Shown piece after piece: positions 13,372 through 39,939 of a stretch of DNA of 64,000 nt. A program made the translations under genes and the position numbers. The DNA is taken from contig OZ024754.1 in the NCBI GenBank assembly GCA_964016885.1, positions 9,734,001 to 9,798,000 on the forward strand. Reading direction: 5' to 3'. The DNA is from Eledone cirrhosa. Lineage: Eukaryota. The stretch's first letter is position 1. Each line of letters begins with the position of its first letter. The notes under the pieces are model-generated. The model was given only the letters and a program-made list of their open reading frames with translations, was not told the origin of the DNA and did not search any database.

Positions 13372-13432
13372 TATTTTATCTGACAAAAGCGTACTTAAAT
13401 GTTAGTACCCTTGAAATACGTATAATAAAATA
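13372..13432 (+). ncRNA. Type I hammerhead motif, family 1, probably inactive (core CTGACAA)
   Basis: TATTTTAT-CTGACAA-stem II (GTACT/AGTAC)-GAAA-TACGTA-TA^-ATAAAATA; G8 is mutated to A. Confidence 0.7.
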
Positions 13433-15359
13433 AATATGGTTTTGTACAGATATTTTCCATTTATTAATATTGTTAATATATATGTATATATATATACATA
13501 TATAGTTTTAGTGTGATTCAACCAGCCAGCCAATAAACATCTTTCTTTTATATTATATATAAATGACTGATAAATTTCAGAAAGCCAGTACAATGCAGTA
13601 GGAATACAGTGTGTTCGCCTTTTACATGAAGATGTGTTATTGAACGTAGCGCATAATGCAAATTTGCGTAATTCAAGTCTACTTTTCTGAAGAATAAAAA
13701 TATTAAAAACCACATGTTTTAGTGCATTATTCACACAAACTGAATATTTAATATTACTTCAAGAGGCATTAAAGCGAATTTCAAGTTCGTGTAAAAAGCA
13801 AACAGACTGTATATCAAGGGGAAAGAATGACAAAACTAAACAGTCATGTTTTAGCTAGTATATTTCTTAACGATGGTGACACATCTGAAATATCTGTAAC
13901 AGCTCTCTTCTCTAGTTAGTGCTGTCACACTAAAATATTTACATAGTAATATCTAGAAGACTTGACTTTCATTTATTTATATATTTATTTATCTTTATAT
14001 TTGTTTGTTTCTATTTATTTATTTTTTCTCTTCCAATCTGTATATCTTATACCAATCTGTACTCTCTTCTTTTGCTTTGAGACAAAAATAAAGCAACCAA
14101 ACTGTAGAAGGGTAATTGATAAGGCCAGTGTTTAAAGAAAACTTTACAAGATATCTGCTATCTAAAAACATACTTGATTAATTCAAATTTTATTCTTATT
14201 TTACAATTTCTTACTAAAGAAGAAGAAGTAAATTTGCATTTCATTCTTCAAAGTATTTTTCTATGTTGAGATCATAGAAGTTATTTTTATGTTAGAGTTT
14301 GTACTAGCTCAAATTGCTTTGGAAATTTTTTTCATAAGCTTAAACCTCAGCTTTGCAAGATATTTTCAAGCAAAAAGAAAAACAGAAATAAAAAAAAAAT
14401 AAAAATTCTTATTCTTTAATTTTATTTCATTTTTTGTTTGTTTGTGTGTGTTTGTTTTTGTTTATCTGTTTTTCGTTGGTTGTTTAGTTGTTGTTGTTGT
14501 CTTCTCAGTTTCAAATATTTGGTTTTTACTTAATATATTGCTATTCAGCTTGTAGTCTTATAATGTTTAAACTATTTAATATACTTCCATTCAACTTTTA
14601 GTCTTGTAATATAAATAACTAGATAGAGAGGAAAATTGCCTCGTGACTTTGAACACACATATACACACTCACTCACACATACACACATGCACGTACACTC
14701 ATTCACACATATACGCATGCACTCACACATATGCACACATGCACGCACACACACACACAAACAAACACACACATACACGAACACACTCACACAATCACAA
14801 TCACACTCGCACTCACACGAATACACACACATACACAAACACACACATGCACAAACACACACAAACACGCATACACAAACACAAACGCAAACACAATCAC
14901 ACTGACACACACAATCACACACACTCGCACACACACACACACACACCCACACACACACACTGACACACACACAAATGCACTCACACACACAGACACACTG
15001 ACACACACAACCACATACACACACACACACACTCACATATACACTTACACAAACGCCGTCACACACACAGACACACACAAACACACACCTTTACATGAAA
15101 GATCTCTAAATCCCACCCATTACACACCCCACTAAAACACTAAATTTAACTAATGAAATACAGTCATTCTATATTACTTGTTGTCGTTGTTGTTGTTGTT
15201 GTTTAGTTTCCAGCCATGACCATCCTGTCTACTTACTTTTCCAGATATGATATTATCAAATATGTTTAACATTTTCATCCTCATCATCACCATTATCTCA
15301 TCATCATCATCACCATTTAACATCTATCTTACTAAGCTTGCATGAGTTATATGGGTTGT

Positions 15360-17990
15360 CATGTTATCATGGCACCAACACTACCACATTACAGAGTGGA
15401 CTGGGTGCCTCTTTGTCATGGCACCAACACTACCACATTACAGAGTGGACTGGGTGCCTCTTTGTCATGGCACCAACACTACCACATTACAGAGTGGACT
15501 GGGTGCCTCTTTGTTATAGAACCAACACTATCATCTTACAGAGTGGACTGGGTGCCTCTTTGTTATAGCACCAACACTATCATCTTACAGAGTGGACTGG
15601 GTGCCTCTTTGTTATAGCACCAACACTATCATCTTACAGAGTGGACTGGGTGCCTCTTTGTCATGGCACCAACACTATCATCTTACAGAGTGGACTGGGT
15701 GCTCTTTGTCATGACACCAACACTACCACATTACAGAGTGGACTGGGTGCCTCTTTGTCATAGCTCCAACACTACCACATTACAGAGTGGACTGGGTGCT
15801 TCTTTGTCATGACACCAACACTACCACCTTACAGAGTGGACTGGGTGCCTCTTTGTCATAGCTCCAACACTACCACATTACAGGGTGGACTGGGTGCCTC
15901 TTTGTCATGGCACCAACACTATCATCTTACAGAGTGGACTGGGTGCCTCTTTGTCATAGCTCCAACACTACCACATTACAGGGTGGACTGGGTGCCTCTT
16001 TGTCATGGCACCAACACTATCATCTTACAGAGAGGACTGGGTGCTCTTTGTCATGGCACCAACACTACCACATTACAGAGTGAACTGGGTGCCTCTTTGT
16101 CATAGCACCAACACTATCACCTTACAGAGTGGACTGGGTGCTTCTTTGTCATGGCACCAACACTATCATCTTACAGAGTGGACTGGGTGCTCTTTGTCAT
16201 GGCACCAACACTATCATCTAACAGGGTGGAGTGGGTGCCTCTTTGTCATGGCACCAACACTACCACATTACAGAGTGGACTGGGTGCCTCTTTGTCATGG
16301 CACCAACACTATCATCTTACAGAGTGGAGTGGGTGCCTCTTTGTCATAGCTCCAACACTACCACATTACAGGGTGGACTGGGTGCCTCTTTGTCATGGCA
16401 CCAACACTATCATCTTACAGAGTGGACTGGGTGCCTCTTTGTCATGGCACCAACACTATCATCTTACAGAGTGGAGTGGGTGCCTCTTTGTCATAGCTCC
16501 AACACTACCACATTACAGGGTGGACTGGGTGCCTCTTTGTCATGGCACCAACACTATCATCTTACAGAGAGGACTGGGTGCTCTTTGTCATGGCACCAAC
16601 ACTACCACATTACAGAGTGGACTGGGTGCCTCTTTGTCATGGCACCAACACTATCATCTTACAGAGTGGACTGGGTGCCTCTTTGTCATGGCACCAACAC
16701 TACCACATTACAGAGTGGACTGGGTGCCTCTTTGTCATGGCACCAACACTATCATCTTACAGAGTGGACTGGGTGCCTCTTTGTCATGGCACCAACACTA
16801 TCATCTAACAGGGTGGAGTGGGTGCCTCTTTGTCATGGCACCAACACTATCATCTTACAGAGTGGAGTGGGTGCCTCTTTGTCATGGCACCAACACTACC
16901 ACATTACAGAGTGGACTGGGTGCCTCTTTGTTATAGCACCAACACTATCATCTTACAGAGTGGAGTGGGTGCCTCTTTGTCATGGCACCAACACTACCAC
17001 ATTACAGAGTGGACTGGGTGCTTCTTTGTCATGGCACCAACACTATCATCTTACAGAGTGGAGTGGGTGCCTCTTTGTCATGGCACCAACACTATCATCT
17101 AACAGGGTGGAGTGGGTGCCTCTTTGTCATGGCACCAACACTACCACATTACAGAGTGGACTGGGTGCTTCTTTGTCATGGCACCAACACTATCATCTTA
17201 CAGAGTGGAGTGGGTGCCTCTTTGTCATGGCACCAACACTACCACATTACAGAGTGGACTGGGTGCTTCTTTGTCATGGCACCAACACTACCACATTACA
17301 GAGTGGACTGGGTGCTTCTTTGTCATAGCTCCAACACTACCACATTACAGAGTGGACTGGGTGCCTCTTTGTCATAACTCCAACACTATCATCTTACAGA
17401 GTGGACTGGGTGCCTCTTTGTCATAGCACCAACACTATCATCTTACAGAGTGGACTGGGTGCCTCTTTGTCATAACTCCAACACTACCACATTACAGAGT
17501 GGACTGGGTGCCTCTTTGTCATGGCACCAACACTATCATCTTACAGAGTGGAGTGGGTGCCTCTTTGTCATAGCACCAACACTATCATCTTACAGAGTGG
17601 ACTGGGTGCCTCTTTGTCATAACTCCAACACTACCACATTACAGGGTGGACTGGGTGCCTCTTTGTCATAACTCCAACACTACCACATTACAGGGTGGAC
17701 TGGGTGCCTCTTTGTCATGGCACCAACACTATCATCTTACAGAGTGGACTGGGTGCTCTTTGTCACGACACCAACACTATCACATTACAGGGTCGACTGG
17801 GTGTTTTTTTGTCATGGCACCAACACTACCACATGACAGGGTGGACTGGGTGCTTTTTTGTCCTGGCACCAACGCTATCACATTACAGAGTGGAATGGGT
17901 GCTTTTTATCATCATACCAGCACTACTACCTTACAGGGTGAAATGGGTGCTTTTTACCGTAGTGCCAGCACTACAACCTTAAAGGATTGA
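15360..17990. repeat. 49-bp minisatellite, ~53 copies
   Basis: Unit CATGGCACCAACACTA(CCACA/TCATC)TTACAGAGTGGACTGGGTGCCTCTTTGT. Confidence 0.97.
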
Positions 17991-18652
17991 CTGGGGGGCT
18001 TTTTGATCATGGTATCAGTAGGGTTGGATTTGGAGAAGATTTGACTGTTATTTCTAACAGATCAACTAATTATATAAAACTTTTCTTTTTCTATATTATT
18101 TTATATTTATTTGTGATCTCTTATATCATACATCGATTGACAGAACTAAAACTCCGTGATTGCTTGCTTGCTTGTTTGTCTGTAATGTAATACAGTCAAA
18201 AGGGTGTATAATGGGAAAATACTTTGAAAGGAAGTTGACCCTGAAATGGGAATACAAATGGAATAAAACAAGTTTCGCATAAATCAAAGCATGGGTTCCT
18301 GAGATACGGGGTTTTTCCGGGAACCTTCATAAACAGAGGGAGAGAGAGAGAGAGAGATTTGAAACAAACAAACTTGATTTGCTTTGGTCGATCTCGTTAT
18401 AAAGAATTTTCCGTTACAATAAATTCTTTTTTATACCATGTGAATTTTGTTATAACATAATTTCACTGTATATATATATATATATATATATGTATATATA
18501 TATATATATATATAATATATATCGTCAAGTATGAAATTTGTAGAAATTTGTTTTATTTTTCTACAAATTTCATATTTGACGACCTAACACACATATATAT
18601 ATATATATATATATAATATATAAGAACAAAAGATGGTTAAAAGAGTTCCATG

Positions 18653-38953: not shown

Positions 38954-39000
38954 TGCTCCGAAGAATCCAAACCTCGGTTTGGAGGAAACAATTGTAAGCA
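38954..39000 (+). ncRNA. Type I hammerhead motif (core CCGAAGA)
   Basis: TGCT-CCGAAGA-A-TCCAAACC tc GGTTTGGA-G-GAAAC-AATT-GTA^-AGCA; U4 is replaced by C. Confidence 0.75.
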
Positions 39001-39872
39001 TATAAATGATTTGAACAGAACTTTGATTCTTATAATTTATATATACTTTTATATATATTTATATAATTTGAAGAATAAAACCAAACTCTGCTAACTATAT
39101 CATATTTAAATTTACGTATATTTCATCCTTAATATTAAGAATACTCAGAATTAAATAAAATATAACTACCTTAAACATTTTGTCCAAGAATATAAATCTT
39201 ACCAGTGCCATTTTGTTTACATTTAAAAAAAAATGAAGAGTCATACTAAGAAGTAGTACTTACCACGAGTATAGTTACTGAAATTATTCACTTGGGCACT
39301 CAAATGAACAGGCCTACATGAAATGAATATTATAACTAATATAGCTTTTTTGCACAATAAATTCAGTATCTCTCGATATATATATATATCATCATCATCA
39401 CCATTTTACGTCCATTCTTCCATGCTAGCATGGGTTAGACGGGTTGTCCTGTTGTGGGCAGTGCCTGGTCGGCTGACCTTGTCTTGCTCATACGGGAACT
39501 GATTCTGGCTTGATTTCTACAGCTGGATGCCCTTCCTTACACCAACTTCATTTACAGTGAGTGCTGGGGGCTTTTTTTCCGTGGCGCCTACATGAGCACT
39601 TTACAGTGTGGGCTGGGTGTTCTTCTGCTGTGGCACCTCCATGACCACTTTGCAGTGGGAAGGGGTGGGGGCATATTGTCTATATGCTTCAGATTCGGCT
39701 TGTACCCATGGGGGGTCGGGTCTTCTGTATTACTGTGTGACGTCAGGTCACTATATATATATATATATGTAGAAGGTGGCTATGCATATATCAGATAAGT
39801 AGCACTCAACAATTGGTAGAACTGTAGTATATATTAAAGAAGATATTAAAAGATGGTTAAAGAAGTTCCATA

Positions 39873-39939
39873 TATTTTATTATGCGCATTTCGAAAACAT
39901 CATCTGGGGACAAAAATGGTGTTCTCATCAGATAAAATA
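39873..39939 (-). ncRNA. Type I hammerhead ribozyme, family 1
   Basis: Reverse strand: TATTTTAT-CTGATGA-G..stem II..C-GAAA-TGCGCA-TA^-ATAAAATA; canonical core. Flanks are homologous to 18630-18770. Confidence 0.87.

Follow-up and report, generated by a model that had tools for sequence, protein, structure and literature searches.

Cervera & De la Pena (2014) described hammerhead ribozymes in pseudo-LTRs of Penelope-like elements from metazoans, among them small variants with a palindromic helix III (PMC4209133). The consensus given there reads 'GAAAN Palind NU H', and Fig. S3 of the same work includes UA CGCG UA and UA GGCC UA in Aedes and CA GUAC UG in Saccoglossus; most copies are solitary, and dual min-HHRs lie about 100-700 bp apart on opposite strands. 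Earlier, the legend of Fig. S8C in Perreault et al. (2011) noted several ribozymes with a palindromic stem III and loop III, 'the vast majority' being able to pair as dimers (PMC3088659); these repeat-type hammerheads have a palindromic stem III like that found here and come from other species. Reviews describe the Penelope hammerheads as having a very short palindromic stem III loop and working as dimers, aided by a tandem layout (PMC6765202, PMC6466107), and the small dimer-cleaving hammerheads of Lunse, Weinberg & Breaker (2017) are, by the reviews' description, of the same kind and may already include the families reported here. Non-LTR retrozymes and the satellites of newt and axolotl likewise combine, in amphibians, a weak helix III, a palindromic loop and dimer-assisted cleavage (PMC7229834, PMC7761336). 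A sequence-only reading of the present locus had proposed that a stem III which keeps its palindrome while changing its sequence is a signature of dimeric cleavage; a dimer-type design is supported below, but the signature is not new: both a palindromic helix III of variable sequence and cleavage as dimers have been published (PMC4209133, PMC3088659).

The window, that is, the whole 64,000-nucleotide stretch of Eledone cirrhosa DNA analysed here, contains motifs that we regard, with a probability of roughly four in five, as small type I hammerheads derived from Penelope-like terminal repeats of several families and left as short, 5'-truncated, often inverted insertions. A core CUGANGA, GAAA, an NUH site and helices I and II occur in type I order, and helix III has 1-3 bp, with 15.2-16.2 and loop 3 forming a palindrome in 7 of 10 scan matches. 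Five copies have in common the layout TTTTAT-CTGA(T/C)(G/A)A-stem II-GAAA-hexamer-TA-ATAAAA; they sit where the sequence-only reading had placed them as a single family 1, with the hexamers TACGTA, TGCGCA and TATATA and with stem I TTTTAT/ATAAAA in all five. The single family does not hold, since the 3' flanks align within two groups (z 6.5-12.6) and not between them (z 0.8-1.3), and it splits into family A (copies 13380 and 27126 and the partial copy 24403) and family B (copies 18715/18841 and 39931). In family A, the hammerhead at 13374..13430 (+ strand; loop TACGTA, 13417-13422) has the core CTGACAA with a G8>A change, by which it is probably inactive, and that at 27071..27132 (- strand; loop TATATA, 27079-27084) has an intact core and belongs to a family that is high-copy in sequencing reads; the two are 77% alike over 181 nt. 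A further family A fragment at 24385..24513, interrupted by an AT microsatellite, holds a 5' half on the - strand with its core at 24403 and, at 24477-24513 (+ strand), part of the 3' flank in inverted orientation. In family B, the hammerheads at 18655..18721 (- strand) and 18835..18901 (+ strand; loop at 18888-18893), both with TGCGCA and an intact core, had been counted as separate copies at 18.7 and 18.9 kb; they are the 163-nt arms, 97% complementary, of one inverted repeat at 18608..18948 and thus a single insertion. The remaining family B hammerhead, at 39875..39937 (- strand; loop TGCGCA, 39883-39888), also has an intact core and is 77% alike to copy 18841 over 199 nt. Between-copy homology stops within about 200 nt.

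Other families have other loops. A family C hammerhead at 19765..19878 (+ strand), with an 83-nt stem II, an intact core and the loop CAATTG at 19865-19870, is accompanied by a 5'-truncated inverted partner at 19614..19752 (- strand), which begins within stem II and has the broken palindrome CAATGG. The family T inverted pair at 23407..23732 carries TGATCA in both copies, directly 3' of GAAA (23668 + and 23471 -) as had been claimed; its + copy (23626-23683) has the core CAGATGA (U4>A), and its - copy consists of the 3' half. CAATTG was likewise confirmed directly 3' of GAAA at 19861 (+), 38985 (+) and 38709 (-), the second within a hammerhead at 38954..39000 (+ strand) with the core CCGAAGA (U4>C) and the third within a hammerhead-like site at 38693..38732 (- strand; core CTGAGGA, weak stem II), which falls below the stem thresholds of both hammerhead scans. 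Single core changes thus occur in copies 13380, 38958 and 23630. Intact cores with non-palindromic loops are found at 38329..38376 (- strand; copy 38371, CACTG) and at 43277..43336 (+ strand; copy 43284, odd-length CCACTGG), the latter beyond the range first covered. Three non-palindromic loops (CACTG, CCACTGG and CAATGG) had thus been left out of the sequence-only reading. Two further families that had been named were not recovered: ACCGGT occurs once after GAA (49056, -), with no core upstream within one mismatch, and 8 of 68 AATATT sites follow GA, GAA or GAAA, none forming a hammerhead. As ACCGGT includes A15.1 and U16.1, the true insert there is 4 nt in a different register, and the site is a half-motif rather than a family; it lies in an inverted repeat at 48985..49190, where GAAA CCGG TA on the - strand (49050-49059) is a possible hammerhead 3' half lacking an intact core. 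Low-scoring scan matches at 60597 and 39148 were set aside as probable chance.

The motifs are more frequent than expected by chance. One scan gave 11 core positions, 7 of them palindromic, against means of 1.2 and 0 in 30 shuffles, and the exact core occurred at 7 positions against 0.1; a second scan gave 10 sites against 1.65 in 20 shuffles, of which 7 and 0, respectively, were palindromic, which places palindromic stem III far above chance. With the inverted pair merged, 6 of 9 are palindromic (P ~1e-9 at 1/64, a value that overstates the significance as related copies are not independent), whereas palindromes occur at only 3 of the window's 206 remaining GAAA-N6-TH sites. Loop-free pattern scans of public microbial collections, which serve as a chance control only, returned no loci in the first case, 44 loci reducing to 24 distinct matches with one palindrome in the second, and at least 122 loci reducing to at least 108 distinct matches with one palindrome in the third, without relatives in any; together, 2 of 132 chance matches were palindromic. 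An Rfam search of the window gave only a tRNA-like match above the gathering threshold and no hammerhead, and at E up to 10 hammerheads were absent among the 150 of 308 matches listed.

The PMC4209133 ribozymes and the window copies have in common type I topology, a short helix I, a long helix II, palindromic 15.2-16.2 and loop 3, covariation-rich families, and both solitary copies and opposite-strand pairs. Unlike the published type, the window copies mostly lack the G10.1-C11.1 pair and have no attached Penelope ORF in the window, and a C-pyrimidine mismatch at the fourth stem II pair is common to families A and B. An additional base after A9 and the G10.1-C11.1 pair are typical but not obligatory features. 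The pair is present in one of the five family 1 copies (39931); it is likewise missing from published members in Hydra, D. willistoni and Marsupenaeus (PMC4209133), so that its absence is no bar to membership. Published Penelope insertions often lie beside microsatellites and carry an adjacent inverted 5'-truncated copy, and this arrangement of truncated copies with an adjoining inverted copy is matched here by four inverted pairs (18608-18948, 19614-19934, 23407-23732 and 48985-49190) and the inverted fragment at 24477. Penelope-like elements encode a telomerase-like reverse transcriptase and a GIY-YIG endonuclease. No reverse transcriptase or GIY-YIG domain was detected in any of 180 filtered frames of at least 55 aa or in 46 shorter ones lying upstream of the hammerheads, and a Pfam scan of the 226 frames gave five weak sub-cut-off matches and no retroelement domain; as no Penelope protein gene was found in the window, the Penelope link is inferred.

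Non-LTR retrozymes, in which head-to-tail repeats yield multimers that are cut by paired hammerheads and ligated into small circular RNAs, would provide another source for such ribozymes. Dimer-requiring retrozymes with a weak palindromic helix III have been reported in axolotl, and retrozymes also in a mussel (PMC7229834); for Penelope-like elements as well, a circular step has been suggested (PMC4209133), and one small joint that 'goes back 41' is present in 6 X13 reads. However, retrozymes and satellites form head-to-tail repeats of 150-450 bp yielding circles (PMC7229834, PMC7761336), an arrangement not found for these motifs within the window: none of 15 sites falls within any of its 34 tandem arrays, copies are solitary or inverted with homology as short as noted above, and the sole same-family, same-strand neighbours (24403 and 27126) are separated by 2.7 kb of sequence that includes SINE-like and other repeats. 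That interval was rejected as a full element, having no ORF and containing unrelated repeats. A retrozyme origin is thus very unlikely, and the tandem, multimeric or circular intermediates that had been deduced are not implied by these copies; a single Penelope-like transcript with a hammerhead in each of its two end repeats would be enough.

Sequence variation further supports pairing of stem III between molecules. Stems II and III both covary: 6 of 8 stem II pairs and 2 of 4 helix III pairs are changed on both sides, with 0 of 500 shuffles as high and slid controls far lower, on the basis of five full copies from which the structure itself was drawn. The two bases at the centre of the hexamer, which are unable to pair within one strand, take only the self-pairing states CG, UA and AU in palindromic copies, together with UG in reads. 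Read variation was examined for family A with copy 27126 as reference; listed variants fall at none of the 11 CUGAUGA and GAAA positions, none of the 2 UH-site positions and none of the 6 stem I 5'-strand positions, against 14 of 31 stem II positions, and the two listed in the stem I 3' strand are both A>G opposite U. A common variant, UAUGUA, is not a strict palindrome but self-pairs via G-U; it is carried by 15378 of 23582 reads in X13 (reduced-representation data in which few loci dominate) and by 70 contigs in X1, which may itself be the window's own source, and also occurs in X5 and X6 (organisms B and C). Its non-pairing twin UACAUA stays below 4% in X1, X5 and X6 and is not among the X13 variants listed, an asymmetry that may stem from one ancestral event.

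Neutral decay or a DNA-level effect might produce similar patterns, with TATATA arising from TACGTA by CpG deamination or AT-microsatellite bias and the symmetry belonging to DNA rather than to RNA pairing. AT repeats abound in the region, CpG is depleted in the window (observed/expected 0.37), and in a SINE-like repeat 18 of 78 CpG cells are changed, compared with 74 of the 1389 remaining cells; CG>TA double decay, however, affects only 1 of the 78. In X1, loop position 4 is A in 98% of depth and every change at position 3 stays below 4%, which makes TATATA a family state; CpG decay was rejected as its origin. Moreover, TGCGCA, TGATCA and CAATTG are not derivable from CpG or AT decay, and for UAUGUA and the A>G variants of stem I, pairing is possible only in RNA and only on the ribozyme strand. 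This explanation, already refuted in large part, is extremely improbable.

Folding energies are in line with the intermolecular pairing. The forced monomer hairpin was computed at +2.4 or +4.7 kcal/mol and the self-duplex at -3.2 to -10.5 kcal/mol, with a weak UAUGUA duplex (-2.2). When two molecules were folded together, 5 of 8 motifs had all 8 stem III bases paired with the partner molecule, against 0 of 8 bases for the TATATA copy, and motifs folded singly show no unusual stability (z -2.17 to +0.88). It is very unlikely that these ribozymes act as monomers with protein or tertiary help, the palindrome arising incidentally from a 2-3 bp hairpin or persisting as a relic: a two-pair stem alone does make the outer positions complementary, copy 43284 folds as a complete monomer (the sole one of 10 with stem III in its monomer fold), and cofactors have been suggested for the slow dimer cleavage of minimal forms (PMC4209133), whereas the inner 2-4 loop bases, unpairable in a monomer, change together and show self-complementarity in 7 of 10 scan matches. 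Because the central bases of the palindromic copies vary only among self-pairing states, the monomer hairpin is unstable and the duplex is stable, a dimer-type design, with stem III made for pairing with another hammerhead, is well supported.

In an active parent of these Penelope-derived copies, a transcript with two end repeats, or two transcripts, would bring two hammerheads together, and the self-complementary 8-nt segment of each (A15.1 to U16.1) would join in one shared helix III, upon which each core would cut after NUH. Each family might then have fixed its own self-pairing sequence, with one lineage passing via a G-U state (UA, UG, CG at the centre). The genomic copies would be mostly decaying fossils. 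The inverted pair at 18608-18948 folds into a single hairpin with 92% of bases paired, and a transcript across such a pair would be expected to form a long hairpin hiding the ribozyme. Selection most likely acted on master elements rather than on these copies, of which several have a disrupted core or are caught in long inverted hairpins.

It was also considered whether inverted truncated copies begin at the predicted cut above chance, the template being the 3' product left when a dimerised hammerhead was cut, and the insertion a record of in vivo cutting. The + arm at 49120 starts exactly at the predicted cut and the 24477 piece 3 nt past it, and three other inverted partners start away from it; the 49120 start is explained equally by stem I fold-back, and the 49 kb site lacks an intact core. 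Family A reads show no step or pile-up of ends at the predicted cut. The idea is improbable, but, if true, such starts would make in vivo Penelope-type cleavage testable from a genome alone.

The locus adds apparently unreported families, as well as the UA/UG/CG series at the dimer-helix centre, to a ribozyme class described in 2011-2017. Cephalopods are absent from the relevant part of the PMC4209133 species list, no report of these ribozymes in octopus was found in the literature searched, and the pertinent part of an Octopus vulgaris repeat paper gives Penelope families and leaves hammerheads unmentioned. Since reviews call the in vivo role unresolved, a dense genome with many families would be a useful test bed. 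The window holds about 10 hammerheads per 64 kb, a density by which the genome may contain very many; for the giant squid genome, 235 Rfam hammerhead-1 matches have been reported.

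The motif set is real and lies far above chance. The five hammerheads that the sequence-only reading had placed in one family, at 13380 (+), 18715 (-), 18841 (+), 27126 (-) and 39931 (-), were recovered exactly as described by a descriptor scan of the window. When the core was permitted a single mismatch, 11 positions passed, whereas 30 block shuffles averaged 1.2; the loop, the segment after GAAA in stem III, was palindromic in seven of these and in none from any shuffle. A second scoring gave 10 sites against 1.65 in 20 shuffles, seven being palindromic against zero; palindromic loops are commoner than chance. 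With an inverted pair merged, six of nine were palindromic (P ~1e-9 at 1/64, a value too strong since the copies are related). A background of ~1/64 was found both in other GAAA-N6-TH sites of the window (3/206) and in chance matches from microbial collections (2/132). The proposed list of further families was overstated: the TGATCA and CAATTG sites are present, while ACCGGT represents only the 3' half of a motif, carries a 4-nt insert and lacks a core, and none of eight AATATT sites following GA, GAA or GAAA forms a hammerhead. Loops breaking the palindromic rule, which that list had missed, are CACTG (38371, -), CCACTGG (43284, +) and CAATGG in the inverted partner of 19771 (+), and a core base is altered in three copies (13380, 23630 and 38958). 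A metagenome match, L012:3001-3055, combines loop TGTAGT with a GC-rich stem II that looks plausible; it may have arisen by chance or represent a hammerhead unrelated to these.

The five copies do have a common stem I, while flank alignment divides them into family A (13380, 27126) and family B (18715, 18841, 39931), not alignable with each other (3' flank z = 6.5-12.6 within families, 0.8-1.3 between them). Moreover, the 18.7 and 18.9 kb hammerheads, previously counted as separate copies, are arms of a single inverted repeat. Since A and B have the same stem I and, at the fourth pair of stem II, the same kind of mismatch, C-pyrimidine (13387-13412, 18685-18708, 27089-27119, 39893-39924), they may be distant kin; loose read ends at the 27126 copy carry the same C-C, so this mismatch may be a conserved contact. 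Inverted pairs comparable to that at 18.7 and 18.9 kb occur at 19614-19934, 23407-23732 and 48985-49190, with an inverted fragment at 24477; as RNA, the inverted pairs form hairpins in which 79-92% of the bases are paired. At 48985-49190, the start of the + arm (49120) coincides exactly with the predicted cleavage position of a minus-strand GAAA CCGG TA half-motif, upstream of which an intact core is absent.

Both stem II and the palindromic stem III change sequence while staying paired, with changes on both sides in 6/8 stem II pairs and 2/4 helix III pairs of a six-row alignment (five full copies) in which stem I is invariant. No shuffle reached this covariation, and slid structures scored far lower; it is supportive rather than a formal test, because the same sequences had served to draw the structure and a single insertion supplies two of the rows. 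In computed energies, a two-pair monomer stem III is unfavourable (+2.4 to +4.7 kcal/mol) and the 8-bp self-duplex favourable (-3.2 to -10.5 kcal/mol). Monomer folds were unremarkable, stem III forming alone only in 43284; in co-folds, all eight bases paired to the partner in 5/8 motifs and none in the TATATA copy. Palindromes above chance, covariation and the computed self-duplex thus uphold the reading as dimer-type hammerheads.

At 80% likeness, the 27126 copy matched 4118 contigs in X1 (possibly the source of the window), 26158 reads in X13 (reduced-representation data), one contig in X5 (organism B) and 38 in X6 (organism C); therefore, family A is a high-copy repeat, present in organisms B and C too. 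Among the variants listed, counted per position without linkage, changes affected 0/11 core, 0/2 cut-site and 0/6 stem I 5' positions, 2/6 stem I 3' positions (both A>G opposite U), 1/6 loop positions and 14/31 stem II positions. The loop variant, UAUGUA, occurs in 15378/23582 reads in X13, 70 contigs (1.9% of depth) in X1, the sole X5 contig and about half of X6 depth. It is not a strict palindrome, and self-pairs through two G-U pairs (-2.2 kcal/mol, computed); UACAUA, whose computed self-pairing is unfavourable (+1.0 kcal/mol), stays below 4% in X1, X5 and X6. One ancestral change could explain this asymmetry. CpG decay was also considered as the origin of TATATA in the 27126 copy; double decay occurred in just 1/78 cells of a SINE-like repeat, and, given also the loop variant pattern in reads, TATATA is a family state and not such decay of this copy.

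The motifs resemble Penelope-type small hammerheads in working and most likely belong to them, their tie to a Penelope protein gene being putative; a search of 226 frames in the window detected neither an RT nor a GIY-YIG domain. The parent transcript would contribute two hammerheads, the simplest case being one in each of its end repeats; these would form a common helix III and cleave after NUH, releasing the RNA of the element. Reverse transcripts that are truncated would subsequently integrate, in many cases together with an inverted piece, and then decay. The further inference of tandem or circular intermediates went too far, as 0/15 sites lie inside any of 34 tandem arrays in the window; circles are possible, yet not implied. 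Dimer-type palindromic hammerheads are already published: Perreault et al. 2011 (PMC3088659) give Fig. S8C to palindromic stem III pairing in dimers, reviews (PMC6765202, PMC6466107) restate the point and credit dimer cleavage to Lunse et al. 2017, the standard Penelope architecture includes an inverted 5'-truncated copy, and palindromes differ between families in Fig. S3 of Cervera & De la Pena 2014 (PMC4209133), as among copies here. A literature search found no publication on these particular families.

The window looks like non-coding animal DNA, presumably cephalopod-like (GC 20-49%, CpG observed/expected 0.37), with 149 tandem-repeat rows and abundant microsatellites and tRNA-like SINE heads, those of one SINE-like repeat lying at 13116-13173, 38083-38146 and 42829-42886; at least 10 matches belong to another SINE-like family. 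A minus-strand frame at 40139-40429, without a Pfam match, presumably resembles the C terminus of an RTE-type LINE protein. Additional short inverted repeats lie at 18489-18615, 20359-20443 and 29800-29870, the last with CTGATGA in both arms and no GAAA partner. A MITE-like element at 26035-26420, a long imperfect inverted repeat, contains one ACCGGT word out of three in the window. A hairpin that is GC-rich and near-perfect has two copies (19050-19165, arms 55 nt, and 24045-24155), each of which adjoins a common 50-nt segment; they form a repeat family.
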